Positions 1,740-20,592 of a stretch of DNA of 25,409 nt are shown piece by piece. The notes beneath the pieces are model-generated. The model saw only the letters and a list, made by a program, of their open reading frames with translations. It made no database searches and was not told the DNA's origin. Numbering within the stretch: the first letter of the stretch is position 1; each line of letters opens with the position of its first letter. The DNA comes from Promethearchaeota archaeon (GTDB lineage: Archaea; Asgardarchaeota; Lokiarchaeia; Sigyniarchaeales; SOKP01): assembly GCA_048938895.1 (NCBI GenBank), contig JBHLLU010000025.1, positions 1-25,409 of the forward strand, read 5' to 3'. The translations under genes and the position numbers were made by a program.

Positions 1740-1887
1740 ATAATTTCCTTGCGATAATTACAGAAAATATATACAAATAGTTATACCACCATAGGAAATT
1801 CTTGATATTTGTAGTTTCAACTATAGTTTATACTTCTTAATAATATATTTTTTTTTTAAATATTCTCATCATTATACTTTAACGATT

Positions 1888-2091
1888 ATGAGTTCTAAGT
1901 CTATAAAGAAAGAGACAGTAAGTATTGAATTTGAGATAAAAGAAGGATTCCAGGTGAAGTCACTTGCCATCCCTTATTCGCTTTTTTTTAGAAATCAAGA
2001 ATCATTTATTTATTCGGGGGAAGAGAAGATCCCTTTTAAGAAACGACACTCTCGATATAAGTCGATATTGCTTAACGAGTTTAGAGATTAA
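1888..2091 (+). CDS. Small hypothetical protein (67 aa)
   Basis: ATG lies ~26 nt after a T-tract+TTTAAATA box (1848-1862). 3' end overlaps the convergent gene by 11 nt. Confidence 0.5.
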   Translation: MSSKSIKKETVSIEFEIKEGFQVKSLAIPYSLFFRNQESFIYSGEEKIPFKKRHSRYKSILLNEFRD

Positions 2092-2608
2092 TTGTATAAG
2101 AACGATCATAAATCTTTTTTAGGATCCCCTTTTTTAGGAATTCTTTCTCAAGAAGTCGTAATTCTACCTGTGGAATCTTAAATTTATCAGCCATCACGTC
2201 AAACACGTAGTCAGGGAATCTATCGTAAGTTAAAGATATTTCTTTAAGCATAGCAGTAAACTGGATCGAATAATCTTCTTGTTTCTTTTCAGATTCATTC
2301 TGTTCAGCCTCTTCAAACTGAGAGGAAAATCCCGTAATCCTAAAATCGGTCATTGCTCTGAATTCTGGAGTATTTCCTAATTCGGATATGGCAAATTCAT
2401 TTTGTTTTTTTTTAACTTCCTCAACCGCACTAGTCATCCCCTTAACAATCTTTCCTGAATCTAAAATATCTGATACGATATGATTCTGTCCACATCGCAA
2501 ACATTTCTTTCCCTTCTGGGTAGTTTTTACATACATATATTGGCTACACTTCCTGCATGTAAAGATTAGATAGGGAGTCTCATCCTTCTTAAAAGTGGCT
2601 TCTTCCAT
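2081..2608 (-). CDS. Zn-ribbon protein (DUF1922-like N-terminus) with probable C-terminal winged helix
   Basis: YLIFTCRKC...KKCLRCG has two CxxC pairs. C-terminus 'LLEKEFLKKGILKKIYDRSYTI' resembles a wHTH end. Starts 3 nt after the hef stop. Confidence 0.7.
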   Translation of the reverse strand: MEEATFKKDETPYLIFTCRKCSQYMYVKTTQKGKKCLRCGQNHIVSDILDSGKIVKGMTSAVEEVKKKQNEFAISELGNTPEFRAMTDFRITGFSSQFEEAEQNESEKKQEDYSIQFTAMLKEISLTYDRFPDYVFDVMADKFKIPQVELRLLEKEFLKKGILKKIYDRSYTINL

Positions 2609-2611
2609 AGG

Positions 2612-4708
2612 TTAACCTACCTCTTTTTTGGTTTCTAAAATACTTTGGATAATAAAATAGACTTCCTCTTCATTATAAATGGGGAGAATCTGAATCCCTA
2701 AATCTAAATTCATTTTTTGGAGGTGAGATTGCAATTTATGCTTTTCTCCGGCATGCTGTTCCTCAAAATCAATAAAGTCCACCAGAACAATTAGTAATTT
2801 GCAAATCTCCTTTAAGTCGGAAATTTCTCCCGTAGAAGAAATAAAATCTCGAGGGTTATACACTTGGAGTAACACTTTATTTTGAATGGTTATATGTAAA
2901 TCAGAATCGACCACAGAAAACGATATGTTAGCTTGTCGTAATTTTTTTCTCAAACCAAGCTTCATAGGAAGAGATTTACCTAGTTTGATATCTGGTTCTT
3001 TACGTATAGGAGGTGGGGAAGGTCCGGTAAACATTTCTAGACTTGCTTGAGGGGGAGATCGTAATGTAGGGCTAATACGTTCAAGAATTTTTATACTTTC
3101 TTCAGTTTTTGATGTAAACTTCAAATCAGATTCCTTGTTAAGCTGTTGAGGAGATTTTAAGTTTGTATTCATCTTTTTAAGTTTATTTAATGCAATATGG
3201 AGGTATATCTCATCGTGCGTTCCTTTACAGTATAATATGATAACCTTTCCTTCTCGATGTCGAGCAGTTCTTCCTTTTCTCTGGATAAGTCGAATTTCGG
3301 AAGCGACTACATCATAAAACACCACCAGATCACACTCAGCAATATCTAATCCTTCTTCTCCTACATTTGTTGATACCAATACATTATATATTCCCTTTCT
3401 GAACTCTTCTAAAATCTCGATCTGCATTTTCTGGGAAAGGCCTTTATCATCCTCAGATTTCGTCGCTTGTCCTACAAATCGAATGGGGTGGATCCCCTCA
3501 ACTTCGCTCAATCTTTTTACAATGGTTTTTAATGAGTCTCGTAGCTTTACAAACACTAAGATACGAGCTTCAGGTCTAATGGTTAGTTCGTCAGTCAGTA
3601 CTTTGTGAAGTATGTGATATTTAGGATGAATAAGGTTTTCTGGAGAAAGATCTTCATTTTTCTTCAGCTCAATAAAGACACGATGAATTCTCGAATCAGA
3701 GGCGAGTATTTTTACTGCCTTGGAGCTCGCTTTTTTCTTTTGATCTCTCCTTAATTTTTCTAGATAAATAAGCAAAACATCTAATCCTTGTTGTTCTATT
3801 AATTCTAACATATGATATACAATTAATGCCTGAGCATTGATCGATAATGCACTATAGACCCCTGTCTTATCAGTACTACTTTTAAGAATGCTTACTAATT
3901 CTTTATTTAGTCTTAGTAAGTCTTTTCGAAAGACTTTTTCGTGCAGTAGATCTGCCTTTCCATCTAGAAATCCAAGTTGCGAAAGATAATGAAGACGTTC
4001 CTCTAAGACAGAGGTCAAGACCGAATAGGTTTCAGCCATTAATCCAGTAAGATTTACTCCGATCTTATAAATATTCATAGGTTTCAAATAACTTTTCACA
4101 TCCTCATCTTTTCGAGTCCTGATATGAATATTTTCTAAAGGAATATGCAGACTGGTACATAATTGAGCAATCTTCTTCTTCGATGCCCCCGGAGATGCGG
4201 TAAGTGCAAGCGTTGTCCCATCAGGATTTTGCTCCGAATATTCATCTGCAATCATAATATAGGCATATTCTCCCGAAGCGTGATGTGCCTCATCAAAGAT
4301 GATAAGAGCAGTATCTTCAAGAGTATAACGCCTACTCACTAAATCGTTTCGAAGCGTTTGAGGAGTGTAAAATAAGATTTGGTTATGGTGGTATAATTCA
4401 GTTCTTTTTTCAGGAAGTGTTTTTCCGGTAAGTACCACAAAATTATCTTCAGGAATGTTTAAAAATTTGAGGAAGGTATCATAATGTTGATTGATAAGAG
4501 GACGCGTGGGTGCCAACACGATGATTTTGCTTTCAGGGGGAAATAGTTCAAGTGCCTTCTTTGCAACCAATACCGCTATAATTGTTTTTCCCAGCCCTGT
4601 AGGTAGCACCACGAGTGAATTTTTATTTATACAAAAGTTCGCAATGGCAACCTGATACTCTCGTACCTCTAATTCTGATATATGGTCTGAATCATCAACC
4701 ACACTCAC
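2612..4708 (-). CDS. hef: Hef/FANCM/Mph1-family DEAH helicase with degenerate C-terminal ERCC4-like domain
   Basis: Motifs: REYQ (Q), LPTGLGKT (I), APTRPLINQH (Ia), TPQ, FDEAHHA (II), LTASPG (III), RFVGQA...GLSQK.Q, STNVGEEGLDI (V), IQRKGRTAR (VI). GTG start overlaps the upstream TGA (GTGA). Confidence 0.93.
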   Translation of the reverse strand: MSVVDDSDHISELEVREYQVAIANFCINKNSLVVLPTGLGKTIIAVLVAKKALELFPPESKIIVLAPTRPLINQHYDTFLKFLNIPEDNFVVLTGKTLPEKRTELYHHNQILFYTPQTLRNDLVSRRYTLEDTALIIFDEAHHASGEYAYIMIADEYSEQNPDGTTLALTASPGASKKKIAQLCTSLHIPLENIHIRTRKDEDVKSYLKPMNIYKIGVNLTGLMAETYSVLTSVLEERLHYLSQLGFLDGKADLLHEKVFRKDLLRLNKELVSILKSSTDKTGVYSALSINAQALIVYHMLELIEQQGLDVLLIYLEKLRRDQKKKASSKAVKILASDSRIHRVFIELKKNEDLSPENLIHPKYHILHKVLTDELTIRPEARILVFVKLRDSLKTIVKRLSEVEGIHPIRFVGQATKSEDDKGLSQKMQIEILEEFRKGIYNVLVSTNVGEEGLDIAECDLVVFYDVVASEIRLIQRKGRTARHREGKVIILYCKGTHDEIYLHIALNKLKKMNTNLKSPQQLNKESDLKFTSKTEESIKILERISPTLRSPPQASLEMFTGPSPPPIRKEPDIKLGKSLPMKLGLRKKLRQANISFSVVDSDLHITIQNKVLLQVYNPRDFISSTGEISDLKEICKLLIVLVDFIDFEEQHAGEKHKLQSHLQKMNLDLGIQILPIYNEEEVYFIIQSILETKKEVG

Positions 4709-5292: not shown

Positions 5293-5314
5293 TACACCTT
5301 ATTTTTGTCGAAGT

Positions 5315-5329
5315 TATAAAAAGAAAAAA
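5315..5329 (-). promoter_or_regulatory. T-tract/TATA promoter motif (TTTTTTCTTTTTATA) for the hef operon
   Basis: Anchor C is 31 nt from ATG 5292. Confidence 0.65.
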
Positions 5330-5340
5330 TTTACAAAAAA

Positions 5341-6852
5341 TTAAAGGGATTGAATAGTCGTTTTAATATAACTTTCAATTTTATTAACCACTTCTGTAAG
5401 ACTGATTCCATTGTTCTCTTCTTTATTAATACTTAATAATACTCTTCGAATGACTTCAAGCGAATAATAAAGTATCTTTGAAAGATAAAATTGGTTTTTG
5501 GCAAGTTTCTTCTGCTGTGTTGCTAACACCATTTGATTATCAAGGACCATGGTTAACGGATCTTTAAGTGAGGGTTTTGATTCCTCTAGGCTTTTATAAG
5601 CAGATAGTTCTTTTGCCCTCTGATCCAACATCCATGTGAGGTTTTTGAGGTCAATCGAGACATGGTTTAACGGTCGAATGAGTGCGATAATAATCCCTCC
5701 CACCAAAATAATTTGCCAGAGTAGAAAGATCTGAGAATAAGAATTCACAAACCTACGATAGAGAAAACCACACATGGCTATACCCACGCTTCTTCCTATA
5801 AGTCCGCTTAAGTTTCCAAGAGAAAATGCGACCGAACGTACTTCAGGAAGATTGATATCTCCCAAGATAGAATATGTAATAGAAAGGGTTGAGGAAGTCA
5901 TAAACGAAAATACCATGAGAAGACCAATAAAAAGGGGAATGGACACAGGGCTTATGGCATAGGCCGTGATTGAAAATCCCGAACCAAGTACTATGGTAAA
6001 TAGCAGAGTGATGATTTTTCCATTAGTTCTTTTCTGATATGCGCTGTCTGCTTTCTTTCCCCATAAAGAGACTCCAAATAATTGAGGAATAAAGACCATA
6101 ATTTGGGTGATCATTGCATTAAAGGGAGTAAAACTTGCATCTGTCCGTAGAAAGGTTACAAAGTAGAAGGTTATCGTACCGACAACAAAATCATGAATAA
6201 AAAAAAGTACTATAAGATTAATATTAGTGGTTGTTTTCGAGAATTTATTCAATTCTATTAGCCCTAAACGATAGTTATAGTCATTTTCAGCATTTCCCCT
6301 TTGAGGAACAGGTACAGAAATAAGTAAGAAGGTGGTTACAATCGAGACCAGAAATAAGATAAATACAAGTAGTCTCCATGAGATCGCTCCTAAAAACAAT
6401 CCAAATAACATAATACCTGCCCCCGTGCCTAGAAACAAAGCCATTCCCAATAAGGCAATGGAATTGGTTCTATTTTCTGAGGGAGAAAGGTCAACGATGA
6501 TTGAGTTGGTAAGAGGTAATAGAGCACCAAATCCGATGGCAGAAATCATCCTCGAAAGAAAAAACGGAATTAGGTCTACTGAGATACAGGTTATAAAGAG
6601 CCCACAAGAATAGAAACATAAGGAAACCACGAGTAGTTTTTTTCGAGGGTAAAAATTTTCAAGGTACGCCCATAGAAATGAAAGAATTCCAGAAAAAAGT
6701 AAAAAGAATGAATGTGTTATTCCCACCACACTGACAGATAACGATAAGCTGTCGGTTATGTCGATGATCAATGGTCCGAATACCGAAACTGATGCCCATT
6801 CTACGATAGTGAGTAAAAATAGAACTATGAAAGTAACTCTATATTTCATCAT
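5341..6852 (-). CDS. MFS transporter (about 12 TM) with ~100-aa soluble C-terminal helical tail
   Basis: MFS patterns 'WAYLENFYPRKKLL' (degenerate motif A), 'SRMISAIGFG', 'DLSPSENRT', 'DINLPEVRSVA'; two hydrophobic 6-helix halves. Confidence 0.88.
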   Translation of the reverse strand: MMKYRVTFIVLFLLTIVEWASVSVFGPLIIDITDSLSLSVSVVGITHSFFLLFSGILSFLWAYLENFYPRKKLLVVSLCFYSCGLFITCISVDLIPFFLSRMISAIGFGALLPLTNSIIVDLSPSENRTNSIALLGMALFLGTGAGIMLFGLFLGAISWRLLVFILFLVSIVTTFLLISVPVPQRGNAENDYNYRLGLIELNKFSKTTTNINLIVLFFIHDFVVGTITFYFVTFLRTDASFTPFNAMITQIMVFIPQLFGVSLWGKKADSAYQKRTNGKIITLLFTIVLGSGFSITAYAISPVSIPLFIGLLMVFSFMTSSTLSITYSILGDINLPEVRSVAFSLGNLSGLIGRSVGIAMCGFLYRRFVNSYSQIFLLWQIILVGGIIIALIRPLNHVSIDLKNLTWMLDQRAKELSAYKSLEESKPSLKDPLTMVLDNQMVLATQQKKLAKNQFYLSKILYYSLEVIRRVLLSINKEENNGISLTEVVNKIESYIKTTIQSL

Positions 6853-6873
6853 AAATTACAAAGAAGTTCAGGA

Positions 6874-6900
6874 TTTTTAAAGGAAAATTTAAAGAAAAAA
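6874..6900 (-). promoter_or_regulatory. Two T-tract/TATA motifs (TTTTTTCTTTAAATT; TTTTCCTTTAAAAA) for the MFS gene
   Basis: Anchor Cs are 42 and 30 nt from ATG 6852; could also be terminator tracts of the upstream TFB-like gene. Confidence 0.5.
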
Positions 6901-6922
6901 GAAAAAAAATGAAAAGAAGGAA

Positions 6923-8143
6923 TTATCCTACTCCTGGAGGATCTTTTCCCAGATGATAATTTCTCAATATCAGCTCAAACCATAACATAGGAGCTTTTCT
7001 TTTAAGCTGTGGTTTGTAGCTAATGGTATTATGTACTTCTAAATAACAAACAGAGAGAATATTCGAACCGATATATGGATCTACAATGCCAAATAAATAA
7101 TCATCATTTTCAAGAGTAAATACTTGCCTTGCATTCCCAAATTCAAGTTCAATTCGCTCCTCACCTTCTTCTCGTTCTTTAACAACTTCTTCTTCAAATT
7201 CTATAACGTTTAATTCAACCATAATGCTTTTAATCATTTCAGAAGAGCGAACTAATGTGGTAAATCCTTCTACCTGATAACGATCAAACAGTCGATTTTT
7301 TACCTGTTGTTGGATAGTACTCATTCTAATGTCAAGTAATTCACAAATTGAATTAATTTTTATTTCTTCTTTATACTCACAGAGCGCGGTAATTGACGCA
7401 CACAATCCCGCGATAACGTTATCAGTAGTATTTTTGATCCCGTCCCAGAGCCGATATAGTACTTTCTTAGAGAGGAAGTAAAAGGGCATCCCGAGGTCAA
7501 AATAATTAGTAATTTCTAATAATTTTTGAGAGATATATTTCTGTCTATTTCTTACTGCATAGTTCGGGAAATATGCTTTTATTTGCAGATAGAAGTTATT
7601 AAATTCTTTCTTAGTAAGGTCCGTGATATTTAAAATATCTGAGAGAGGTACTGAGATGATATCAAGTTTAAACCTAAAATAGAGAATAATGGCCACCAGT
7701 TTTTCTACATTTCTAAATTTCGTACCGGGAGCAAATTGAGCTCGAATACTTTTAAAATTGTCTAGAGCTTTTTGTTTTACAGACTCATACTCTTCCAATC
7801 CAAGGCTACTTAAAATCCGTGCAATTTCCCTTTGAGCCTTTATTTCTACGATCTTTTCATTGTCAGTTACTTTGTTGTAGTTATTCAAACGTCTTAAGAC
7901 TCTAAAATGAGGAGAGAGTTGCCGTTCTCTTTTGTTCCCAATCTGAGTATTATGTGCTTTTCGAGCATATTGAAGAACATCATAGTTATAGGGGCGATTA
8001 TACTGGAGTTTCTGTATTTTCAGTACGACAGCACATTCTCTACATACGTATCCCTCAGTTGTTTCAATAATTTCGGTAGAATCACACACATCACAGCGAA
8101 GAGTGGTCTGTGCTACTACTACCGAAGTTTTTTCTATCGTCAT
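6923..8143 (-). CDS. Divergent TFB/TFIIB-like protein (Zn ribbon + two cyclin-like repeats + acidic/extra C-terminal region)
   Basis: CDVC-x14-YVCRECAVV Zn ribbon; linker 'VLRRLNNYN'; repeat 1 'EIARILSSLGL...KLVAIILYF...VPLSDIL'; repeat 2 HTH 'IKINSICELLDIRMSTIQQQVK'. Confidence 0.75.
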   Translation of the reverse strand: MTIEKTSVVVAQTTLRCDVCDSTEIIETTEGYVCRECAVVLKIQKLQYNRPYNYDVLQYARKAHNTQIGNKRERQLSPHFRVLRRLNNYNKVTDNEKIVEIKAQREIARILSSLGLEEYESVKQKALDNFKSIRAQFAPGTKFRNVEKLVAIILYFRFKLDIISVPLSDILNITDLTKKEFNNFYLQIKAYFPNYAVRNRQKYISQKLLEITNYFDLGMPFYFLSKKVLYRLWDGIKNTTDNVIAGLCASITALCEYKEEIKINSICELLDIRMSTIQQQVKNRLFDRYQVEGFTTLVRSSEMIKSIMVELNVIEFEEEVVKEREEGEERIELEFGNARQVFTLENDDYLFGIVDPYIGSNILSVCYLEVHNTISYKPQLKRKAPMLWFELILRNYHLGKDPPGVG

Positions 8144-8200
8144 TTTTTTTGATCACTATTTTTTCTATTTTCACTAAGAAAGTTTTGTGACGGTGTTTGC

Positions 8201-8216
8201 TTTTTAAACCTTACGG
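8201..8216 (-). promoter_or_regulatory. Candidate conventional BRE-TATA for the TFB-like gene (CCGTAAGG-TTTAAAAA)
   Basis: TATA-like box preceded by a purine-containing BRE-like stretch ~60 nt upstream of ATG 8143; AGTGATC SD-like site near the start. Confidence 0.4.
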
Positions 8217-8354
8217 TTGAGATCGATATTTGTGCGTAGGGACTTTCTATCGCCCGATTCAAATTTAGATCTAACTATAAAAACCCCACTTTTTTCATTT
8301 CATTTATCATTGACATTTTTGTACATATTAAAAGAATCGAGCATGGATGACGCA

Positions 8355-8437
8355 CTTCTGATCTATCTTCCGGAATAGCCCTAACTTTTTTCAGGGAGCT
8401 TTTCCAGATGATATAGTCGATATGGAGAGATCAGGAG
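8355..8437. other. Extended imperfect stem-loop in divergent intergenic region
   Basis: CTTCTGATCT (8355-8364) pairs with AGATCAGGAG (8428-8437), one G-U pair. Inner arm 8365-8382 pairs imperfectly with 8393-8412. Confidence 0.45.
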
Positions 8438-8480
8438 AAAATGTACATTTGTGTAAAAAATCGGAAACATGGATGTAAAT

Positions 8481-8495
8481 TTTTTTCTTTATAAA
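8481..8495 (+). promoter_or_regulatory. T-tract/TATA promoter motif (TTTTTTCTTTATAAA) for the protease-RadB-like operon
   Basis: Anchor C is 30 nt from ATG 8517; divergent intergenic region, so not a terminator. Confidence 0.7.
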
Positions 8496-8516
8496 GGGTG
8501 AGAGAATTAGAATGAT

Positions 8517-9610: not shown

Positions 9611-9613
9611 CAC

Positions 9614-10306
9614 ATGCAAGTCCAACAGCCCCTTATCAATTTTTTAGAACGAATTATTTCTGAATATACCGTTATATCGATTTCAGGGGAATCAGGAACT
9701 GGAAAAACATCCCTTGCGGTATATTTGATTGCAAACCTAGTAAAAAATCCTGTTTGTTGTATCTGGGTTCAGGCAAGTGAGCCTTTTCCTAGAGTCAGAC
9801 TAGAAGGCATGTTTCGAAAAAATACTGAACAACAGGAGTATGTATTACAAAACACCTATATAGCTCCCAAAAAAGTAATGCACTCCTATTCAGATCAAGC
9901 CCATTTTTTCTCTACGTTTTTAGATTCGATATTTCCCCCTGATCTTCAATTTCTTATTATTGACAATATCTCCCATCATCTGCGTTATGAGCTTACTATT
10001 AGATCAGGGATTGATAAAAAAGTAAGACTTCTGGATGAGTTTTATGATACTGTAATATATCCCTTGATTTTAAAGTGTCAACGAGAGAAGGTTATCCTTA
10101 TTTTGCTCCATGAAGTTTCTTTTGATGTATCTACTCAACAGAACCGTCCCTTTTTCTACAAACTATATGAAAGAATTAAAGGAGTGCAACTAAATCTTAA
10201 TAAATCACTTTTTTCTGAAGAAAGAACAATGGAAATCGATACTGGGAGTAATCGAGTATCATTCGGTTTTACGATGAGTGAACATGGGTTCTATTTTGAG
10301 CTATAA
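9614..10306 (+). CDS. RadB/Rad51-paralog-like RecA-fold ATPase (core only)
   Basis: Walker A GESGTGKT, 'EPFPRVRLEGM' (cf. E.F...RL.QI), Walker B LIIDNIS, 'LLHEV' at the TNQV position; no N-terminal HhH domain. Confidence 0.8.
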   Translation: MQVQQPLINFLERIISEYTVISISGESGTGKTSLAVYLIANLVKNPVCCIWVQASEPFPRVRLEGMFRKNTEQQEYVLQNTYIAPKKVMHSYSDQAHFFSTFLDSIFPPDLQFLIIDNISHHLRYELTIRSGIDKKVRLLDEFYDTVIYPLILKCQREKVILILLHEVSFDVSTQQNRPFFYKLYERIKGVQLNLNKSLFSEERTMEIDTGSNRVSFGFTMSEHGFYFEL

Positions 10307-10340
10307 AAAGATATGTTACTTAACCCTTTTCTTATTCCTC

Positions 10341-10355
10341 TTTTTTCTTTAAATA
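10341..10355 (+). promoter_or_regulatory. T-tract/TATA promoter motif (TTTTTTCTTTAAATA) for radA
   Basis: Anchor C is 62 nt from ATG 10409; the leader contains an SD. Confidence 0.65.
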
Positions 10356-10408
10356 GGTTGAGTCTCAAATAGGTTTAGTAACAGTAAAGTAGGTGATGTA
10401 CAAGACAT

Positions 10409-11623: not shown

Positions 11624-11624
11624 C

Positions 11625-11700
11625 TCCTTTTTTTTTAATTCTTATTATAGAGAATTAATTGTTTGAATATATAAAAAAGTAAAAAAAGAGAATTTATTAT
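11625..11700. terminator. Probable bidirectional oligo-T terminator region between convergent genes
   Basis: T9 tract just after the radA stop; A-tracts (T on the minus strand) at ~11673-11687. Confidence 0.45.
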
Positions 11701-12716: not shown

Positions 12717-13032
12717 ACACCTCTAATTCGGTAAATTCTTCTTCCAATTCGTGAATAATTCCGCACTTATCAAACCTAACACAATTAAAACAGGGTTGAT
12801 CTGCCCAGAAATATGCCTTTTGGTTTGGGCGTTCGATAATAAGAACCGGAAAACCCCCATGTGGACATTGCATTGCTGAGTTCGAGATCTTTCCTCTTTT
12901 TGGTAAGGCATACGACATTTCGCATGCTTCGCATTTCATAAACCGTTTATAACTATTCGTTTTGAAGATAGTAAGAGAACATCCACAGGTAGGGCAACTA
13001 CCCACTTCTTTAATCTTTTTCATGAGTCTCAT
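12706..13032 (-). CDS. Stand-alone topoisomerase IA C-terminal-type Zn-ribbon protein
   Basis: 'GSCPTCG.SL.I.KT..KRFMKCEACE.SYALPKRGKI....QCPHGGFPVL' matches the pattern of archaeal TopA C4 ribbons; extra CFNC..C cluster; no catalytic domain. Confidence 0.75.
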   Translation of the reverse strand: MRLMKKIKEVGSCPTCGCSLTIFKTNSYKRFMKCEACEMSYALPKRGKISNSAMQCPHGGFPVLIIERPNQKAYFWADQPCFNCVRFDKCGIIHELEEEFTELEVYGY

Positions 13033-13064
13033 TTATTGTTTTTAGTATTCTCTGGTGTTCTCAG

Positions 13065-13109
13065 TATTTAAAGAAAAAATAATTTCCGAGTGAAATTTTT
13101 CTTTATATA
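13065..13109. promoter_or_regulatory. Back-to-back T-tract/TATA motifs (minus 13065-13079 TTTTTTCTTTAAATA; plus 13096-13109 TTTTTCTTTATATA)
   Basis: 41 nt from ATG 13032 and 33 nt from ATG 13134 in a 101-nt divergent gap. Confidence 0.7.
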
Positions 13110-13133
13110 TATCCAGCCTTAAGATATTCTATC

Positions 13134-13355
13134 ATGTTGCTAGATTATTTTGATCAAATGGGAGAAGCGGTAGAATTTCTAATTGCTCTCGGCTCTTTGG
13201 TGGGAGTTCTAGGACTTGTTGTAGGTATTATCGGGTTCATTTCCCTTGGTCAATTCCGCCGTCATCAGATGATAGGAGTAATAGTTGTATCCATTATGTT
13301 GTTAGTTGTGTGTGGCTCTGCCACTGGATTCAAATATTTCCATATTCGTCATTAA
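13134..13355 (+). CDS. Small 2-TM membrane protein (73 aa), pilin-sized
   Basis: Two Gly-rich hydrophobic helices separated by the basic loop QFRRHQ; own promoter-like box 33 nt upstream. Confidence 0.7.
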   Translation: MLLDYFDQMGEAVEFLIALGSLVGVLGLVVGIIGFISLGQFRRHQMIGVIVVSIMLLVVCGSATGFKYFHIRH

Positions 13356-13381
13356 AAGCTGTTTAAGTAAAAATTTAAAGC

Positions 13382-13756
13382 TTAATGATATCCAGGAGAA
13401 CTATGTTCGGCAGGTCCGATATTAATTCCAAAGATGGTGAGTACCTGTCCTGTAAGCCAACATCCAATCCATAAAAATACAATTCCAGTGGTTAACATTT
13501 TTAGGTTAAGAGAGCGTCCTCCAATAAAGATGCTGAGAATGCTATATGCCGTGAAAAATCCTCCTCCCATCAGACACAAGCCCCCTATGAAATCAAACAC
13601 CTTGGTAAACAGGTAGCCAGTTTGGTACCGTAGATGAACTGCTATGAAGGGAAAAGCGATAATAAAGGCAACTATTCCCCCGAAGATAATGAAGATGGAG
13701 GTAGATGTTTTTGAGGTTCTTCTCGACTCAAATAAATAATACTTGTTTCTTTTCAT
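13382..13756 (-). CDS. Small 3-TM membrane protein; start reassigned from 13795 to 13756
   Basis: Three hydrophobic segments. The longer ORF start overlaps the promoter-like box (13778-13792), which sits 30 nt from ATG 13756 (MKRNKYY...). Confidence 0.7.
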   Translation of the reverse strand: MKRNKYYLFESRRTSKTSTSIFIIFGGIVAFIIAFPFIAVHLRYQTGYLFTKVFDFIGGLCLMGGGFFTAYSILSIFIGGRSLNLKMLTTGIVFLWIGCWLTGQVLTIFGINIGPAEHSSPGYH

Positions 13757-13777
13757 ACACTTCCTAACTGCCCTTTC

Positions 13778-13792
13778 TTTATAAAGAAAAAA
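13778..13792 (-). promoter_or_regulatory. T-tract/TATA promoter motif (TTTTTTCTTTATAAA) for the 3-TM gene
   Basis: 30 nt from ATG 13756; overlaps the perfect palindrome TTTCTTTATAAAGAAA (13774-13789). Confidence 0.65.
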
Positions 13793-14019
13793 CATTCTTA
13801 CCTTCCAACATTATTGAAGACCTTCAGATCAATTATGGATGATTTAGAGGGAAATTCCTAGATTTTTTGTTTAAATATCTTCTGTTTGTCTATCGTTCAC
13901 CACTAAAAATAGATGTGAATTATGAAGATAAAACTTTTTTCTCGACTTGTATGGTTGTACCATCTTGTTAAGGGTTGGTAGTTTTTTTCCTTTCTTTTAT
14001 TTTTTTTCAAATTCTTTAC

Positions 14020-14033
14020 TTTTTCTTTTTATA
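14020..14033 (+). promoter_or_regulatory. T-tract/TATA promoter motif (TTTTTCTTTTTATA) for fen
   Basis: 33 nt from TTG 14058; divergent region. Confidence 0.65.
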
Positions 14034-14057
14034 GAACAAGGAAATTAATATATTACC

Positions 14058-15152
14058 TTGGGAATTAAACTTCAAGATCTTATTCAAAGAGAAATAATCG
14101 GAATTAATGAGTTAGCAGGAAAAATTATTGCAGTCGACGCTCCTAACATCATCATGGGGTTGTTTAATTTTGCAAGAAAGGACCTTGATGGCTCTTATGC
14201 CGGATTGATATTAGATAGAACTCAACGGCCAATTTCTCACCTCTATGGGCTTTTGTATCGACTCAACTTTTATTATTCGAAGAATATTTTTCCTATCTTT
14301 TGTTTTGACGGCAGAGATTCTGAGTTGAAAAAATTAGTTACGAAAGATCAACTTAGGGATTTTCGTTTTACCCAGCAATGGTATGAGCAGGCAATTCAAA
14401 ATCGAGACAAGGAAAAAGCACGACATATTGCGTTAAGTAAGGAATATTTATGGCAGAATATTATTAAAGAATCTAAAGAATTGTTAAATGCTTTAGGAGT
14501 TCCTTGTATAGAGTCACCCGCGTCAGCAGAGTCGCAATGTGCCTACTTAGTCAATCAAGGGATTGTTCATTATTCCAATTCCCAAGATTTTGATTCTCTC
14601 CTATTTGGATGCCCTCATCTAATCCAGAATTTATCGAAATCGCTCCGTAGAAAAATACAAGGGAAATGGACCTATACTAAGATAACACCGTTTCATGTTG
14701 ATTTACACAAAAACTTAAAGAAGTTAGGAATAGATCAGTTTCAGTTAGTTGATCTAGGGTTAATGGTGGGCACAGATTATTTTCAAGGGATCAGAGGGAT
14801 TGGTCCAAAAAAAGCACTAACGTTTATTCAACAATTCAAGCAAATTGAAAATGTTATAAGCCAAGAAAAGTATAATTATGATTTTGAGCAATTGACTCCT
14901 GACATCATAAAAAGAGTACGAAAATTGTATTTATTTCCAGAGGTTAATACCTCACAGCAAGAACTTTATTGGAACTTACCTCTTATGTCTCATGTTGTTG
15001 ACTTACTGTGCTATGAACATTATCTCAATAAAAATCGAGTAAAAAATAACTTACACAAATTAGTTGCTAATTATGAGAAATGTAGAACCCATTTTCTTAA
15101 TTTGCGAGATAAACCTCGTTCAGTTCAACGTACATTAGACAGTATATTTTAG
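14058..15152 (+). CDS. fen: Flap endonuclease-1 family nuclease (divergent)
   Basis: MGI.LQDL, GKIIAVDAPN, ISHLYGLLYR, FCFDG, AESQCAYL, SQDFDSLLFG, GTDYFQGIRGIGPKKAL (H3TH), C-terminal PIP box QRTLDSIF. TTG start. Confidence 0.92.
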   Translation: MGIKLQDLIQREIIGINELAGKIIAVDAPNIIMGLFNFARKDLDGSYAGLILDRTQRPISHLYGLLYRLNFYYSKNIFPIFCFDGRDSELKKLVTKDQLRDFRFTQQWYEQAIQNRDKEKARHIALSKEYLWQNIIKESKELLNALGVPCIESPASAESQCAYLVNQGIVHYSNSQDFDSLLFGCPHLIQNLSKSLRRKIQGKWTYTKITPFHVDLHKNLKKLGIDQFQLVDLGLMVGTDYFQGIRGIGPKKALTFIQQFKQIENVISQEKYNYDFEQLTPDIIKRVRKLYLFPEVNTSQQELYWNLPLMSHVVDLLCYEHYLNKNRVKNNLHKLVANYEKCRTHFLNLRDKPRSVQRTLDSIF

Positions 15153-15272
15153 TTTTGCATAATTGATATTAAAAGATATTATTTAGCTCAAAGACATTTC
15201 ATTATATTTTTTTATTTAAATAAAATGAACTTAAGCATTATTTAGAAAAAATTAATTTCTTCCCAAATTACG

Positions 15273-15860
15273 ATGACTCAAATAATAAAAAAAGAAATTC
15301 CTTGGAGCAGTCTTTCTGGAGCGCATAAATCACCTCAAAAAGAGCTAAATGGTCAAATTTTAAGTTGCTTATTTAGGGAGGAGTGCTTTGTATCATTTTC
15401 TCAAGATATTAAAGCTCTTTCGGAAATGGAAATGAGACAGATTGCCACCAAAGTACGCCTCCCTTATAAAATTGTGCGCTCTGTTATTACTAAGTTTCTT
15501 GTGGATTTGTTCTATTTTCGAAGGTTTTTACGAAGCTATAAATTCACGTATGCCTATACCAAAAGTCTTAGAAAACTAGTTATTTATCTCCATAAGCTCC
15601 ATCGTCTTGCTCCTGTATTCGATTTTCCTCGCGCAAAAGAGAATGCTCGAATCCTCAAACACAATCTATCACTTCGATGCTTTTTACCCCAGTTTGCTAC
15701 TCAACTTGCAATAGTGTTGTATGTAACCGATCTAAATGATCACAATAAGCAGTTTGTTATTAAACAGTCGAATTTACGATTATTATGCGATTGTAGTGCA
15801 TATGCCTTCCACAGGACTCGAAATAAACTCGGATTAGGAAGTAAAAAATCTTATCCCTAA
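15273..15860 (+). CDS. Basic protein with C-terminal TFB cyclin-repeat/HTH-like region, no Zn ribbon
   Basis: 'QLAIVLYVT...IKQSNLRLLCDCSAYAFHRTRNKL' resembles TFB repeat 2 (AAA.LY...TQ.EIA....S...IR.RYK.L). Confidence 0.55.
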   Translation: MTQIIKKEIPWSSLSGAHKSPQKELNGQILSCLFREECFVSFSQDIKALSEMEMRQIATKVRLPYKIVRSVITKFLVDLFYFRRFLRSYKFTYAYTKSLRKLVIYLHKLHRLAPVFDFPRAKENARILKHNLSLRCFLPQFATQLAIVLYVTDLNDHNKQFVIKQSNLRLLCDCSAYAFHRTRNKLGLGSKKSYP

Positions 15861-15870
15861 ATATTCAGAT

Positions 15871-15885
15871 TTTTTTCTTTATATA
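15871..15885 (+). promoter_or_regulatory. T-tract/TATA promoter motif (TTTTTTCTTTATATA) for the GNAT gene
   Basis: 54 nt from ATG 15931. Confidence 0.6.
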
Positions 15886-15888
15886 GAA

Positions 15889-17121
15889 ATGCTCGAATTG
15901 GATATAATAAAAACTCAAAGTGAAATTAAAATGGTTCAAACTATACAAAAATTACAGAAAAGCTATATTAAAATAAGCGAAACTGAAGATCTAACAGAAA
16001 TTGAGCTTGCTTTAAGAAATTTTTTGCGTAAATATACCCCACAAGTTAAGGAAAATGTGATTGTTAGTCTCTTAGGATATTTGGGACAAAAATTCCACAC
16101 TCCAGAATATAAAATAAAAGTTTTTATTGCCTATTATAATAGTGAACCCTATGGGATGGTCATATCTGACTTAAATCCTGAATATAAGAGTTATGGAAGA
16201 AAATGCGGAACATTTGGATGGTTATTCTGTCAAGATCAGCAAATTTGTTATGAACTGCTAAAGCAGTGTGAATTGTTTATTAAAGAAAACAGACTACGAA
16301 AAATCCGAGGTCCGATTAATTTTCCTAAGAATGAATTCGGCTTCGGTCTTCAAATTACAGGTACAGATGAACAGTTGTTGTATGGAGTTGCTCCTGCTAA
16401 TGAAAATCCAGATATCTATGATTATCTAGTAAGTTTAGGATATATCCCTGAATCAGAATATACCTGTATGCATGTTGTTGAAGAATCCTGGAAGAAAGGC
16501 AACTCGCTAGATAGCAGACTTAAATTATGCTGTTTGCCGGTCGATGAAGTAGAAGAGAAAATTGATGAGATTGTAGAATTAGCAGGAGATTCCTTCAGTT
16601 CACTGCTTCCTGATACATCAGGAGGTGGGAGGGAGAATGTAAGGGAGCTTTTGCATCTTGCTACTCATGTACCTAAGCAATATTTTCATTATCATCAAAT
16701 CTATGATCCTTTCGAGCGATACAACCATATTCAGGAATTTATTGAAGGGTGGAAGGATGTAGATCTTGAAGAGATGGTCACGGTATTTCCGATGGCTCTA
16801 GAACGGAATACCAATAAACTTATTGGAATCTTAATTGGAATCCTTGATTATTATCAGTGCTGGAATGGTCAGTATGTCTCACGGATTAACGTCCATACCG
16901 CAATGGTACGTAAAGGCTATAATGGAAAAGGAGTATTCTCTTCTCTAAACAACTTCGGGCAAGCCACCAACCGATCAATGTGGGGTACCGAATACTTTGA
17001 GGGAACGGCCATCTGGACTAGAAATTCGAAAGGAGTGAACAATGAAGATGCCGTCAACTCTATTTTTCCACACTGCCAACCTAACAGGAGGCATGTGGTC
17101 TTTGAAAAACGCGTGAAATAA
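15889..17121 (+). CDS. Tandem GNAT-fold protein (YghO-like N-acyltransferase); real start possibly ATG 15931
   Basis: 'CGTFGW', 'KIRGPINF...GL', 'NP..YDYL..LGY', 'HTAMVRKGYNGKGV' (acyl-CoA motif A). A promoter-like box ends 3 nt before ATG 15889, favouring 15931. Confidence 0.7.
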   Translation: MLELDIIKTQSEIKMVQTIQKLQKSYIKISETEDLTEIELALRNFLRKYTPQVKENVIVSLLGYLGQKFHTPEYKIKVFIAYYNSEPYGMVISDLNPEYKSYGRKCGTFGWLFCQDQQICYELLKQCELFIKENRLRKIRGPINFPKNEFGFGLQITGTDEQLLYGVAPANENPDIYDYLVSLGYIPESEYTCMHVVEESWKKGNSLDSRLKLCCLPVDEVEEKIDEIVELAGDSFSSLLPDTSGGGRENVRELLHLATHVPKQYFHYHQIYDPFERYNHIQEFIEGWKDVDLEEMVTVFPMALERNTNKLIGILIGILDYYQCWNGQYVSRINVHTAMVRKGYNGKGVFSSLNNFGQATNRSMWGTEYFEGTAIWTRNSKGVNNEDAVNSIFPHCQPNRRHVVFEKRVK

Positions 17122-17135
17122 TTTTTTTATTTTCT

Positions 17136-17207
17136 TTAAATATTTATTAGTTTTTTTAGCTTCTGGCTAATATTGATTATTGAATTATATGAGAGATCTA
17201 ATATCAT
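17136..17207 (-). other. 23-codon ORF resembling a single leucine-rich repeat (MILDLSYNSIINISQKLKKLINI)
   Basis: Manual translation; LDLSYN.I..I...L..L fits the LRR consensus; promoter-like box 31 nt upstream. Confidence 0.3.
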
Positions 17208-17229
17208 GACCTAATATAGTTGATTTCTC

Positions 17230-17263
17230 TATTTAAAGAAAAAGACATTTTTTTCTTTATATA
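17230..17263. promoter_or_regulatory. Back-to-back T-tract/TATA motifs (minus 17230-17243; plus 17249-17263)
   Basis: Plus copy is 56 nt from ATG 17311 (Roadblock operon); minus copy is 31 nt from ATG 17207. Confidence 0.6.
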
Positions 17264-17310
17264 GCTTCAATTATATTTTCATTTAAATTTACTAAGGAAA
17301 AGATAAAAAA

Positions 17311-17859
17311 ATGATAAATCACATACCAAAAATTTTGTATAAGAATAGTATTACCGAAGTACTGGACGATATAAAGTACAATTATGGAAAGTTGGTTCGA
17401 CGAGGGTACATTTATGGCTTAATTGCAATTGATCAGGATGCTAAAATTATTGCAATCGACTCTCGGTTCGATCGCAATCTTAATTATTGGGATTTGAGTT
17501 CCATCGGTGCGGCATTATACGGCGTCGCGAGGCAAGGGCAGGATTTTTTTGAGTCAAAATCACTAGAACGAGCGACCATCATCTACGACGACATGCGGTT
17601 ATTTGTTAAGTCAGTGGGAAAAGTTGAGCTCCAGAAGAAAGGAAAGCGAGACATATTAATTGTAATGCTTACGGATAATGATGTGAATTTAGGGGTTGTT
17701 TACATGCAATTAAGTAAGTTTGCGATGAAAATCAGAGAAGAAATCCAGAAAAATCAGAACGCCCAAAAAACCATGAAGATGACTGAAAAGGAAGTAAAAG
17801 AGCACATTAAAGAGTTAAAGAACGAGATTTTTTCTGATAAATTAGGGGAAATTAGTTAG
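17311..17859 (+). CDS. Roadblock/LC7 (MglB-like) protein with C-terminal helical extension
   Basis: 'GLIAIDQDAKIIA', 'LSSIGAALYGVARQ', 'LFVKSVG', 'LTDNDVNLGVV' are typical Roadblock elements; directly upstream of an MglA-like GTPase. Confidence 0.85.
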   Translation: MINHIPKILYKNSITEVLDDIKYNYGKLVRRGYIYGLIAIDQDAKIIAIDSRFDRNLNYWDLSSIGAALYGVARQGQDFFESKSLERATIIYDDMRLFVKSVGKVELQKKGKRDILIVMLTDNDVNLGVVYMQLSKFAMKIREEIQKNQNAQKTMKMTEKEVKEHIKELKNEIFSDKLGEIS

Positions 17860-17881
17860 CATTCCAGGTGATGTATCTACT

Positions 17882-18535
17882 ATGGAACTACAGGAACAGA
17901 ATAAGAAAAGTCAGTTAGACATCAGTAGCGAATTCGATTTTAATGATGCGGAAAACATGCTCCAGTTTAAGATCGTGTACTGGGGACCGGGAGAAAGCGG
18001 TAAAACCACCAACTTTTTTCGCCTTAAGGAAAAATTCGATCTCTTAAAATTATCAAAAGGATATTCGATTGAGACTACCGAAGGAAGGACACTATGGGAA
18101 GACTCGTTATATCTATTGTTTAAATTCCCCATTAAAGATGTGAAGTTTAACATTATTGCTCATGTGGTAACATGTACGGGACAAGAGCGGTTTTTGTCTA
18201 CACGGGAGTATGTACTTGATGGTGCCGATGGAATAGTGTTTGTAGGAGATTCCGATCCTGAAAAGTTAGAACAGAACAAACGTAGTTTCCGCGAGTTGGT
18301 AAGCTTTGCCTCCTCAAATAAGATACCCTATATCGTACAACTCAACAAAAGGGATTTACAGGATGCCATTAAGCTCAGTACGTTTAAAGTCGCTTTAGGG
18401 CTACCCTTATTGAAAAACTATCCCGATGGTTCAGATGTAGTATATGAAGCAGAAGCATTACAGGGAATAAATATTGTGAAATGTTTTAAGCAGATTATCC
18501 TTCAGGTTATTTTCAATTATTTTAGTGAGGAGTAA
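17882..18535 (+). CDS. MglA-like small GTPase
   Basis: KIVYWGPGESGKTTN (G1), EGRTL (G2 with intrinsic Arg), TCTGQERF (G3), GADGIVFVGDS, QLNKRDL (G4), AEA (G5). AGGTGA SD. Confidence 0.9.
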   Translation: MELQEQNKKSQLDISSEFDFNDAENMLQFKIVYWGPGESGKTTNFFRLKEKFDLLKLSKGYSIETTEGRTLWEDSLYLLFKFPIKDVKFNIIAHVVTCTGQERFLSTREYVLDGADGIVFVGDSDPEKLEQNKRSFRELVSFASSNKIPYIVQLNKRDLQDAIKLSTFKVALGLPLLKNYPDGSDVVYEAEALQGINIVKCFKQIILQVIFNYFSEE

Positions 18536-18540
18536 CGGGA

Positions 18541-20286
18541 ATGGATAGTGGGGAAGATTATATCACGCCTGAATTCCTTAATATTATATTTTTTCAGCAA
18601 AAAAACGTAGTTATCTTTCCCTATGTCGACTTGAAACATCTACACGCTCTTGAGATTTTTGCATTAGGCTATAATATAGTGGATCTTGAATCAACAGTTT
18701 TGTATGATCTGAAAAACATTTTAGAGTTTGAAGCTTCTAATTCTTATTCACAAAATCCCTCACTCTATTTTATTTATAATTTAGATAAATCGAAAGTTCA
18801 AGAGTTAACAGAGCTTAGTGGTATTCGTTGTATTTTAAATACTAATGAAAATATTACAGAGATAGCCACTAGTACTGAATTTATTATTTACAACAAGAAA
18901 AGTGGAATTTTTGTCAATTATGCTGAGAACGACTTGGAATTTGAGAAGGCATTAATTTCTTCTTCTACTAGCCTCACCATGCTTCAAGATTCGATTCAGA
19001 AAATTAAAAGTACTGCAACACAGCTCTTTGAACAGATGAACCAAGATCCCTCCCCTAATAAAGTTGCCTCTCTTCTCTGTGAATATAATATCCGCTATTG
19101 GCAGAAGATTTTAGATTATACTTCTCGGTATTTTAAGATTCAGCTACCCTCTTCATCAGAGCTCAGGAAATATGCCTCTGATGCTTCTTTTGTAAAACCT
19201 CGAAATAAACTACTCGATAAAGATTTTTCAGAAGAGTATGAATTAATCGTTTCGAAAAATAGAGCTATTGGAAAAGAGTTTGTTCAGCTTATCCATGATT
19301 ATCGGAGTGAGAAAGTAAATGCTTCTCATTTAGGATTAGAGGAGCTATATAGCCCTCTCAAGCTTTATAATTATTTGAGAAACCGGCATTGGAAAGAAGG
19401 AATTCCTGAGAGATTTATAAAAGAATGGTCTGAAATGAAACTTTCAGGCTATGAGCTTACTGAAGAAGATCTTATTGACTTTGAGGATATTTGCAGTACA
19501 TTAGAAATTAGTTTTATAGGGAAATCTTTAAGCCCACAAAAGCTTTCCGATACGAGCATTAGACCACGAATTCCTGATGATACATTTATAAGTAAAAAAC
19601 CCTCTTTACAGGAAAATTGGAGAGGCTATAAGCTGTGGCTACATGAACGTGTAGAATCTATTTCACATTTAGTCGATAAATGTATAGCGTCCCATAACAA
19701 TGAGCAGTATTCTTATTTACTGAAGGAAATCTCTCAACTCTCGAAATCAATAATCCAAGCAAAGGTTTCACCAATCAAAGAAAGTGTAAGGAACGAAATT
19801 GATACCAAATTAGCAAAAGTTAGGATCAAAGAATGGGTTGCATTGTTTAGTATCGAAGATAAATTTCGATTAGTCAGCATCTTTCGGAAATATTTAGAAC
19901 GTCTCTATAATGATTTTTTTGGGAGAGATCCCTTTAACGAAAATATTGTGCCAAAAATTAAAGCGGTAACCAAATGCTTTCAGCTTTCTATGAAACTTGA
20001 AAGCAATCTCCTCTGGTTAAATAATTTTAGAAATAAACTGACTCATGATGATAGATACAGTGATTCTGAAATTAATTTAATGCTTAGTGTAAATACACCT
20101 CGAATCAACAATATTATCATGCGGTTTATTGCTGGACTTATTACTTCTCAGTTGAGACCCCTCCTTCAAGCGAATAGACATCTAATTGATGAACTCTTTG
20201 GGTATATTCGCAGTACTTATTTCAATGCTGAATATATCTCTACACTTCCGGTAGATCTTATATACGAAAGGATTCTGGTAGTTTAG
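18541..20286 (+). CDS. Hypothetical 581-aa protein with C-terminal HEPN-like domain
   Basis: Starts 5 nt after the GTPase stop; helical C-terminal region 'FRKYLERLY...LNNFRNKLTHD' has an R-x4-H motif (20029-20046). Confidence 0.6.
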   Translation: MDSGEDYITPEFLNIIFFQQKNVVIFPYVDLKHLHALEIFALGYNIVDLESTVLYDLKNILEFEASNSYSQNPSLYFIYNLDKSKVQELTELSGIRCILNTNENITEIATSTEFIIYNKKSGIFVNYAENDLEFEKALISSSTSLTMLQDSIQKIKSTATQLFEQMNQDPSPNKVASLLCEYNIRYWQKILDYTSRYFKIQLPSSSELRKYASDASFVKPRNKLLDKDFSEEYELIVSKNRAIGKEFVQLIHDYRSEKVNASHLGLEELYSPLKLYNYLRNRHWKEGIPERFIKEWSEMKLSGYELTEEDLIDFEDICSTLEISFIGKSLSPQKLSDTSIRPRIPDDTFISKKPSLQENWRGYKLWLHERVESISHLVDKCIASHNNEQYSYLLKEISQLSKSIIQAKVSPIKESVRNEIDTKLAKVRIKEWVALFSIEDKFRLVSIFRKYLERLYNDFFGRDPFNENIVPKIKAVTKCFQLSMKLESNLLWLNNFRNKLTHDDRYSDSEINLMLSVNTPRINNIIMRFIAGLITSQLRPLLQANRHLIDELFGYIRSTYFNAEYISTLPVDLIYERILVV

Positions 20287-20288
20287 TC

Positions 20289-20534
20289 TTAACTTGGGGT
20301 TTCGAGAACACTTATCACAATTTCAGGCTCATCACCCACATAATCTTGTTGGGTAACTTCTGCCTGATATCGCATAATTCTATGGTTACCCACTATGATA
20401 TTGTATTTCGCCAGAAAGCTCAAAATACTCTCATTTTCGAATTCTAACCATTGCATTTTTCTTTCTACTTCCCGAGTTTTCGTGTAGGAGTGTAAATTTC
20501 TTCTTATTTTTAGTAGTAAAAATCTTACATTCAT
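20289..20534 (-). CDS. Small hypothetical protein (81 aa)
   Basis: AGTGATC SD-like site and promoter-like box (20579-20592) upstream; fills the gap convergent to the previous gene. Confidence 0.6.
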   Translation of the reverse strand: MNVRFLLLKIRRNLHSYTKTREVERKMQWLEFENESILSFLAKYNIIVGNHRIMRYQAEVTQQDYVGDEPEIVISVLETPS

Positions 20535-20578
20535 TTTTAGATCACTTTATTATTTTTACTACTTTACAAAAATGAGAA

Positions 20579-20592
20579 TATTTAAAGAAAAA
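20579..20592 (-). promoter_or_regulatory. T-tract/TATA promoter motif (TTTTTCTTTAAATA) for the 81-aa gene
   Basis: 53 nt from ATG 20534; divergent region. Confidence 0.6.

Follow-up and report, generated by a model that had tools for sequence, protein, structure and literature searches.

A T-tract element at the BRE position of promoters in a conserved gene island of Lokiarchaeia and a divergent TFB encoded within the island

Genes and promoter boxes of the window

The stretch of DNA analysed here, called the window, comprises the first 25,409 nucleotides of a contig (JBHLLU010000025.1; C152:1-25409) from a Promethearchaeota archaeon of the Lokiarchaeia (GCA_048938895.1, referred to as G000; assembly of 4.65 Mb, 31% G+C). 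It contains an island of genes whose promoters share a T-tract ending in C directly upstream of a TATA box, and among these genes lies one for a divergent paralogue of transcription factor B (TFB), labelled TFBX. An exact match to TTTTTCTTTWWAWA is called a box, all other matches are called variants, and positions are window coordinates. Eleven exact copies were found in the window, against 0.11 expected from 100 dinucleotide shuffles, among which the maximum was 1. The element consists of T5-6-C in the 7 bp directly upstream of the 8-bp TATA box TTTAWATA, i.e., at the position of the TFB recognition element (BRE). In an alignment anchored at the C, all 11 copies agreed in the T-run, the C itself and the TATA register, without any spacer variation, and a G followed the box in seven. 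The purine- or A-rich BRE was not found at any of the 11 exact sites, where T5-6-C stood instead.

The 120 nt upstream of every open reading frame (ORF) in the window were examined as promoters. The boxes, the genes behind them and two further genes are as follows:

1-1422, plus strand: Hel308/Hjm-like helicase gene, truncated by the start of the contig so that only its 3' part is present
1849-1862, plus strand: variant box in which the C is replaced by T, lying 34 nt ahead of a conserved 67-aa ORF (1888-2091)
5315-5328, minus strand: exact box, C 31 nt before ATG 5292; operon of a 195-aa protein, a DEAD/ResIII helicase (2612-4708) and a DUF1922 Zn-ribbon protein (2081-2608)
6886-6899, minus strand: one-base variant box TTTAAATT, 42 nt before a major facilitator superfamily (MFS) transporter gene (5341-6852)
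6923-8143, minus strand: TFBX, 406 aa, with a Zn ribbon, two cyclin repeats and a C-terminal extension of ~90 aa
8482-8495, plus strand: exact box, 30 nt before ATG 8517; operon of a protein with four transmembrane segments (253 aa), a 111-aa protein and a RadB/KaiC-like ATPase (9614-10306)
10342-10355, plus strand: exact box, 62 nt before a RadA paralogue (10409-11623)
13065-13078, minus strand: exact box, 41 nt before ATG 13032; operon of a Zn-ribbon protein (108 aa) and a 339-aa protein
13096-13109, plus strand: exact box, 33 nt before ATG 13134; 73-aa protein with two transmembrane segments
13778-13791, minus strand: exact box, 30 nt before ATG 13756; 124-aa protein with three transmembrane segments (13382-13756)
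14020-14033, plus strand: exact box, 33 nt before TTG 14058; XPG/FEN-family nuclease paralogue (14058-15152)
15209-15222, plus strand: variant box carrying A at the position of the C, 59 nt before ATG 15273; 195-aa protein
15872-15885, plus strand: exact box, 54 nt before ATG 15931; protein of ~396 aa, to 17121
17230-17243, minus strand: exact box that points at the 3' end of gene 15931-17121 and is followed by no ORF of at least 25 codons
17250-17263, plus strand: exact box, 56 nt before ATG 17311; operon of a 182-aa protein, an Arf-like small GTPase (17882-18535) and a 581-aa protein (18541-20286)
20579-20592, minus strand: exact box, 53 nt before ATG 20534 of an 81-aa protein; in G000, the island ends here on its right-hand side

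The distance from C to the start codon was 30, 30, 31, 33, 33 or 34 nt in one class, termed leaderless, and 41, 42, 53, 54, 56, 59 or 62 nt in the other, in which Shine-Dalgarno-like sequences were present. The two distance ranges had been claimed in a preliminary description of this DNA and were reproduced. Orientation and distance are biased, as all window copies but two face a start codon 30-62 nt away; a lack of such bias, which the preliminary description had named as a refuting outcome, was thus not observed. That description had placed the element before 11 listed starts, of which ten carry an exact box, the one before 6852(-) being the one-base variant TTTTTTCTTTAAATT. The two one-base variants that it named do exist, and its list had missed the exact copy at 17230-17243(-) and the weaker variants at 17129-17142(+) and, with G replacing the C, at 13864-13877(+). 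Its count of six copies in divergent gaps was recovered from the gene map (6 of the 11 exact copies, with C at 8487, 13073, 13101, 13786, 14025 and 20587); the other five exact copies are preceded by a co-oriented gene. The absence of the T-tract from the thermosome, phosphoenolpyruvate carboxykinase (PEPCK, pckG) and TFB-like gene promoters was likewise read from the upstream sequences. The extended island comprises window 1-20600, very probably the end of contig C163, and genes displaced to C152:38-46 kb. Seven of its starts, of which six belong to the window, have the C 30-34 nt and the beginning of the TATA box 29-33 nt ahead of the start codon, which is a leaderless geometry.

The proteins of the window were annotated with Pfam and NCBIfam, and membrane segments were taken from a hydropathy scan. 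The island encodes a RadA paralogue with a helix-hairpin-helix (HhH) domain, a RadB-like ATPase, an XPG/FEN nuclease, two helicases, and HhH and Zn-ribbon proteins. It also encodes a small GTPase module, in which the Arf-like GTPase stands between two proteins of no known family (182 and 581 aa), and several small ORFs elsewhere. The hydropathy scan suggests that many of the island proteins of unassigned function are membrane proteins. No usable ESM Atlas match was found for the 581-aa protein (18541-20286). To the right of the island lie the thermosome, PEPCK and Ras-like GTPase genes, all of them without a box.

The island RadA is an extra paralogue, as two other RadA genes are present in the genome at ~42% identity, and a second XPG/FEN copy is located on contig C130. 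The island RadA paralogue is ~80 residues longer than the matched cores of the two other RadA-like genes, and its C-terminus gave a weak second HhH-like match (PF10391, residues 349-382). A defence-system or phage assignment of the island was also considered and was dropped; PADLOC and PHROGs returned only generic helicase and recombinase matches.

Rarity, conservation and extent of the box-marked island

In the whole genome, 56 exact copies were found on both strands, 13 of them on C152 and 11 in the window (binomial P 1.5e-14). When genes were called approximately as the longest ORFs (4172 genes; 86% of the DNA coding), 33 copies were intergenic, and 16 of these 33 fell inside the extended island, which holds 6.7 kb of the 828 kb of intergenic DNA (binomial P 3.8e-25). 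A weight matrix was built from the 11 exact window sites and used with cut-offs of 15, 16 or 20 bits; at 20 bits or more, it gave 10 matches in the genome, 7 of which lay within the block. No box was found in those upstream regions that were read for the housekeeping RadA and FEN1 paralogues and for the canonical TFB genes.

Several attempts to derive a general promoter consensus for this genome failed. When TATA boxes were sought iteratively in 3130 upstream regions, their positions were flat and their flanks were at background; counts of 8-mers told nothing in the AT-rich spacers; and tRNA promoters could not serve as a reference, as ARAGORN gave 17 tRNAs only, with unalignable upstream regions. 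Therefore, position-restricted TATA-like boxes were used. Outside the island, TTTTTC was found upstream of 1 of 203 such boxes located 29-36 nt before an ATG, of 2 of 679 located 45-75 nt before it and of 0 of 288 at the control distance of 90-119 nt. The bases at positions -6 to -2 of these non-island boxes were 41-48% A at both promoter distances, against 34-41% in the control, and this weak excess of A is what a canonical BRE should leave. With 56 copies in 4.65 Mb and so few T-tracts at other promoters, the motif is not the general promoter of the lineage; the opposite outcome was one that the preliminary description had named as fatal to its proposal.

Whole-genome counts of a 14-mer in 40 relatives were dominated by background, a reversed-pattern control being of similar size. 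The stricter 16-mer gave 0-3 matches per genome, with 38 in the genus against 8 in the control and 2 outside the genus against 9 in the control. Neither count is able to test the co-occurrence of the box with TFBX.

Orthologues of the RadA paralogue (76-89% identity) were found in 14 of the 24 congeners searched, and T6-7-C-TTTAWATA lay 62-70 nt before the gene in all 13 with upstream sequence, while the flanks had diverged. In six congeners, the 26-40 kb around this gene held the same genes in the same order, with 8, 8, 11, 10, 10 and 8 matches of at least 15 bits, and the boxes stood before the same operons as in G000. The box at 17250-17263 was conserved in G024, G016, G005, G011, G017 and G004, and the back-to-back pair 13065-13078/13096-13109 was kept in G016, G011 and G017. 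A scoring box was also present just upstream of the orthologues of the 67-aa ORF (1888-2091) in G024, G005 and G011; the counterpart of box 1849-1862 stands before the adjacent w1437 homologue in G002, and in G017, the ORF behind its syntenic counterpart best matched another small island ORF. The box at 17230-17243(-), which is back to back with that at 17250-17263(+) (17 bp from C to C), could be an orphan, a non-coding or antisense start, or a dead copy. The operon at 17311-20286 is the best-conserved one, with 72-86% identity in 6 of 7 mapped congeners and 92% for the GTPase in G004, and it also occurs in G038, a genome of another family.

The conservation of the box also bears on another explanation, in which the T-runs are intrinsic terminators abutting TATA boxes or nucleosome-excluding poly(dA:dT), and there is no promoter class. 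Archaeal terminators are oligo-T, a co-oriented gene precedes five of the exact copies, and the genome is poor in G+C; the six copies in divergent gaps do not, however, lie at the 3' end of a co-oriented gene. Neither terminators nor base composition fit the invariant register of C and TATA, the 0.11 copies predicted by shuffling, the near absence of the element from promoters in the rest of the genome or its retention at orthologous promoters while the flanks change. Because of the divergent-gap copies, the shuffles and the conservation, this explanation is largely refuted, and we consider it very improbable.

The island is larger than the block first described. In G002 and G016, the Hel308-like gene abuts a homologue of a five-gene operon that is found at the end of contig C163 in G000; therefore, C163 and C152 are probably adjacent, which would make the island ~11 kb longer. 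Three further minus-strand boxes, at 57405, 49921 and 47752, are located in this end of C163 (locus C163:46500-57577). Two proteins that relatives encode within the island, an alpha-toroid protein of 866 aa and one of 219 aa, are encoded in G000 at C152:39988 and C152:44881, each with a box. Altogether, ~20 promoters of the whole island are marked. Among the G000 homologues of the relatives' island genes located outside C152 and C163, none had a box.

The C163 operon encodes an HhH protein of 581 aa followed by proteins of 222, 281, 1251 and 118 aa (locus positions 10346-17372). The 581-aa protein is predicted to have two transmembrane segments, and its residues 54-113 are a RadA/Rad51-type HhH domain; two small proteins of the operon have multiple transmembrane segments, and the 1251-aa protein has three. 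For the latter, the ESM Atlas neighbours were HerA/DUF87/FtsK-like ATPases at 0.89-0.90, which is a lead only; nothing was found with Pfam at E <= 1 or with phmmer against the PDB, and no strict Walker A motif is present. The operon is a candidate for a membrane DNA-handling apparatus.

The alpha-toroid (prenyltransferase-like) protein, of 843-989 aa, adjoins the TFB gene in G002, G005, G006, G011 and G017, and in these congeners, it has an N-terminal signal and a C-terminal anchor. In G000, the MFS transporter gene with its variant box takes the place of the toroid gene, which is located 32 kb away with an exact box.

In G038, part of the gene set recurs and the exact box gave 0 matches. Three island promoters of this genome carry T8-10-G-C/T-TTTTATAA, a related but different element; this pattern was derived from those same three sites and had no further matches in the 4.3-Mb genome.

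Absence of the island from some of the congeners searched and the status of its RadA and XPG as extra paralogues would suit an integrated or domesticated mobile element or virus with its own TFB and promoters. Moreover, in the part of 10.1101/2021.07.29.453957 concerned with this subject, Asgard mobile genetic elements (MGEs) and a wyrdvirus are described as encoding TFB homologues and many Zn-finger proteins. Such an origin is improbable in view of the gene order kept across the six mapped congeners and of the part of the gene set found in another family. No integrase, capsid, terminase/packaging or replication-initiator match was obtained for the scanned proteins with Pfam, PHROGs and PADLOC, the borders and att sites being outside this search, and no relatives of TFBX were found in viral_contigs among 33 pattern matches.

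The divergent TFB and its association with the boxes

Pfam and NCBIfam gave only a faint TFIIB match for TFBX, with PF00382 below threshold. The N-terminal Zn ribbon (CxxC...CxxC) was found, with C17, C20, C34 and C37 invariant in 19 sequences, and PF08271 was found in some relatives of the protein. The cyclin repeats were recognised with a profile of 19 orthologues, which matched the core of Pyrococcus woesei TFB, as crystallised with TBP and DNA (1D3U_B/1AIS_B), over positions 92-269 and thus both repeats with E 1.3e-4. In an AlphaFold2 model, the mean predicted local distance difference test score was 69; the core reached 88-95, and the ends and the last 90 residues were poor. The best Foldseek matches of this model in the PDB were TFIIB, TFB or Brf chains (1d3u_B, TM-score 0.73, root-mean-square deviation 4.3 A). 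The gene that the preliminary description had called TFB-like is thus a real, divergent TFB with the TFIIB fold, as judged by profile search and predicted structure.

The recognition helix of the second repeat is described in the relevant part of PMC4581349 as reading the upstream BRE. In a joint alignment, this helix was (V/I)TE(V/A/I)T(V/L/I)RxR in 11 of 11 canonical paralogues, against IRMST(I/V)QxQVK in the TFBX family; TFBX itself has MSTIQxQVK and not TEVTxRxR. The family comprises 163 clusters at 50% identity with E <= 1e-30. No other feature of it is as well conserved as the helix, in which S was present in 121, T in 105, I/V in 125, the first Q in 88 and the second Q in 106 of 130 representative clusters; in some clades, N, H or Y takes the place of Q. 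Most database names of these relatives are 'hypothetical protein', and some are 'TFIIB-type zinc ribbon', 'cyclin family' or 'TFIIB/Brf1' (metagenome-assembled genomes of Promethearchaeota).

The genome encodes 11 canonical TFBs, which were detected with the Pfam TFIIB repeat (22 repeats; TFBX was not detected in this way), and three TATA-binding proteins (TBPs). The TFB genes are located on C144, C39, C91, C116, C65, C110, C47, C37, C79, C38 and C102, and the TBP genes are located on C61, C120 and C37. This set of paralogues is an expansion of general factors like that of a haloarchaeon.

The promoter of the TFBX gene itself, CCGTAAGG-TTTAAAAA in G000, has no T-tract. At all 22 loci read, it consists of a purine BRE of the GGAAAAGG or CGTAAGC type, then TTTAAAA and then a conserved leader of ~55 nt. 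The leader ends in AATAGTGATCAAA, and the start codon is TTG or GTG, not ATG, in many species. About 25-50 nt upstream of the promoter box, this conserved region (window 8144-8300) contains a sequence that is either an imperfect inverted repeat or a conserved block (…AGAAGAAG-C-CTTCTT…TCAT). From this arrangement, the TFBX gene looks like a tightly controlled regulator gene with a putative operator of its own.

Orthologues of TFBX were found beside the RadA paralogue in 11 congeners. When 46 TFBX loci from species genomes were scanned, 98 matches of at least 16 bits were found in 683 kb, a density of 1.43 per 10 kb that compares with 0.09 per 10 kb in the part of G000 outside the island; these loci include the congeners already used, the relatives are non-independent, and the background is that of G000 only. 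At least one match was present at 37 of the 46 loci. The pattern used to collect the loci contained the TFBX helix itself, so helix variants were left unsampled.

A candidate promoter class and its comparison with known systems

A shared cis element stands before the transcription units of the island and is conserved in relatives, and from this, we infer co-regulation of the island genes. The earlier idea of a distinct promoter class that defines a regulon gains support from the conservation of the box at orthologous genes with diverged flanks and from the presence of a real TFB whose BRE-reading helix is changed. The interpretation that we favour, with a probability of roughly 55%, is that the boxes form a dedicated promoter class read by the TFBX of the island in the manner of a sigma factor. 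TFBX is most likely the reader of the T-tract, rather than another protein. Under the proposed mechanism, a housekeeping TFB would transcribe the TFBX gene from its canonical purine-rich BRE/TATA promoter. TFBX, together with TBP on an ordinary TATA box, would then read T6-C through its altered helix, and the T-tract promoters would be poor substrates for canonical TFBs. Switching on TFBX would thus fire the whole island, as with a bacterial alternative sigma factor. Transcription is predicted to start ~30 nt after the C, which would give seven leaderless transcripts, six of them in the window.

Several points weigh against TFBX as the reader. Its association with the box would be equally expected if TFBX were no more than a further gene of the island, and any of the 11 other TFBs and three TBPs of the genome could be the reader. 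Box-marked parts of the island are present in G004 and G008, in which TFBX was not found (G008 was also negative with the profile), and G009 and G021 hold the RadA paralogue with a box and no TFBX was found there. All four assemblies are fragmented, and in two of them, G004 and G008, the contigs that carry the island break off inside it or at its edge, so that these cases need not be contrary. The exact box appears to be a genus-level feature, as G038 carries a different element. The T-tract could be read by shape and not by base contacts. In human TFIIB, the residues that contact bases are reportedly V283 and R286, and these would correspond to S and Q of TFBX.

The main rival is a separate regulator at the BRE position: T6-C would be the operator of a repressor or activator overlapping the BRE, a housekeeping TFB would transcribe the genes, and TFBX would be just another island gene. 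According to PMC12993045, archaeal genes are most commonly regulated by operators that overlap the BRE or TATA box. Among the island proteins of unassigned function, several small or Zn-ribbon ones could bind DNA, and the box-marked island parts in assemblies where TFBX was not found would fit such a regulator. No helix-turn-helix (HTH), ribbon-helix-helix, winged HTH or other classical DNA-binding regulator was found among the other island proteins with Pfam and NCBIfam, however, but only Zn-ribbon and HhH domains. Moreover, the element is asymmetric, lies exactly at the BRE position and is fixed in its TATA register in 11 of 11 copies, and the recognition helix of TFBX is both specifically altered and conserved. 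We regard a separate regulator as unlikely, though it deserves more weight than the other alternatives.

A broader form of the favoured interpretation is more doubtful. In this form, the unnamed TFB subfamily of 163 clusters in Promethearchaeota would be a true alternative initiation factor whose MSTIQxQVK helix reads T6-C and which switches on a self-contained programme. This programme would consist of paralogous recombination enzymes and a membrane apparatus, the latter including the membrane-anchored RadA-type HhH protein, the 1251-aa membrane protein, some features of which are like those of HerA/FtsK, and small GTPases.

Whether TFB paralogues act as sigma-like factors with promoter codes of their own is a long-standing question, and the BRE differences in the systems studied so far are subtle. 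Few, clustered and conserved sites with a candidate factor among them make this question reducible to a simple in vitro test with ~20 natural promoters. In addition, a conserved Asgard island has been delimited in which extra RadA, XPG and helicase copies are paired with many apparent membrane proteins of unassigned function, and these proteins are candidates for a regulated recombination or DNA-exchange programme. Our literature search on T-rich BREs, this TFB subfamily and this island found no paper describing them.

Compared with the canonical archaeal promoter, the element has the same 8-bp TATA box and a 7-bp element directly upstream at the BRE position, and its spacing to the leaderless starts fits a transcription start ~30 nt after the beginning of the box. 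It differs in having T6-C in place of a purine- or A-rich BRE such as the GGAAAAGG of TFBX's own promoter.

In Sulfolobus, TFB3 is reportedly without the cyclin core and linked to the UV response. This response involves a hexanucleotide motif upstream of the core promoter and not at the BRE position, as outlined in PMC5817253, and the BRE of the TFB2 cell-division regulon is presented in bioRxiv 10.64898/2026.09.06.749720 as similar to that of TFB1 with a different spacing. As far as these accounts go, the island resembles the Sulfolobus TFB paralogues in that a paralogue of a general factor would drive a defined gene set, and the UV/DNA-damage regulon in that DNA-transfer and repair genes share a cis motif. 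It differs in the replacement of the sequence at the BRE position itself and in its candidate factor, which has a full core with a changed helix.

The likeness to bacterial alternative sigma factors, including extracytoplasmic function (ECF) and competence factors (ComX/SigH), lies in the location of the candidate factor gene within its putative, box-marked regulon and in its housekeeping-type promoter. As in competence regulons, a recombinase, helicases and membrane DNA-handling proteins are mixed. The protein family and the promoter architecture are different, and the analogy is one of logic only, with no evidence for DNA uptake. With the haloarchaeal expansion of TFBs and TBPs, the genome shares the many paralogues (11 + 1 TFBs and 3 TBPs), but the promoter distinctions of haloarchaeal paralogues are subtle, whereas in the present genome a single paralogue goes with an element that is clustered and sharply distinct. 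Finally, like the TFBs of Asgard viruses and MGEs, as far as 10.1101/2021.07.29.453957 describes them, TFBX is encoded beside many Zn-finger proteins in an accessory block; unlike them, it is accompanied by none of the viral or MGE hallmark genes searched for and has no relatives among the viral_contigs matches. The partitioning of promoters among TFB paralogues is an already known idea. What appears to be new here is that the BRE position is replaced, that the recognition helix would have been replaced in step with it, and that the candidate factor and its putative targets are clustered in a conserved Asgard island.

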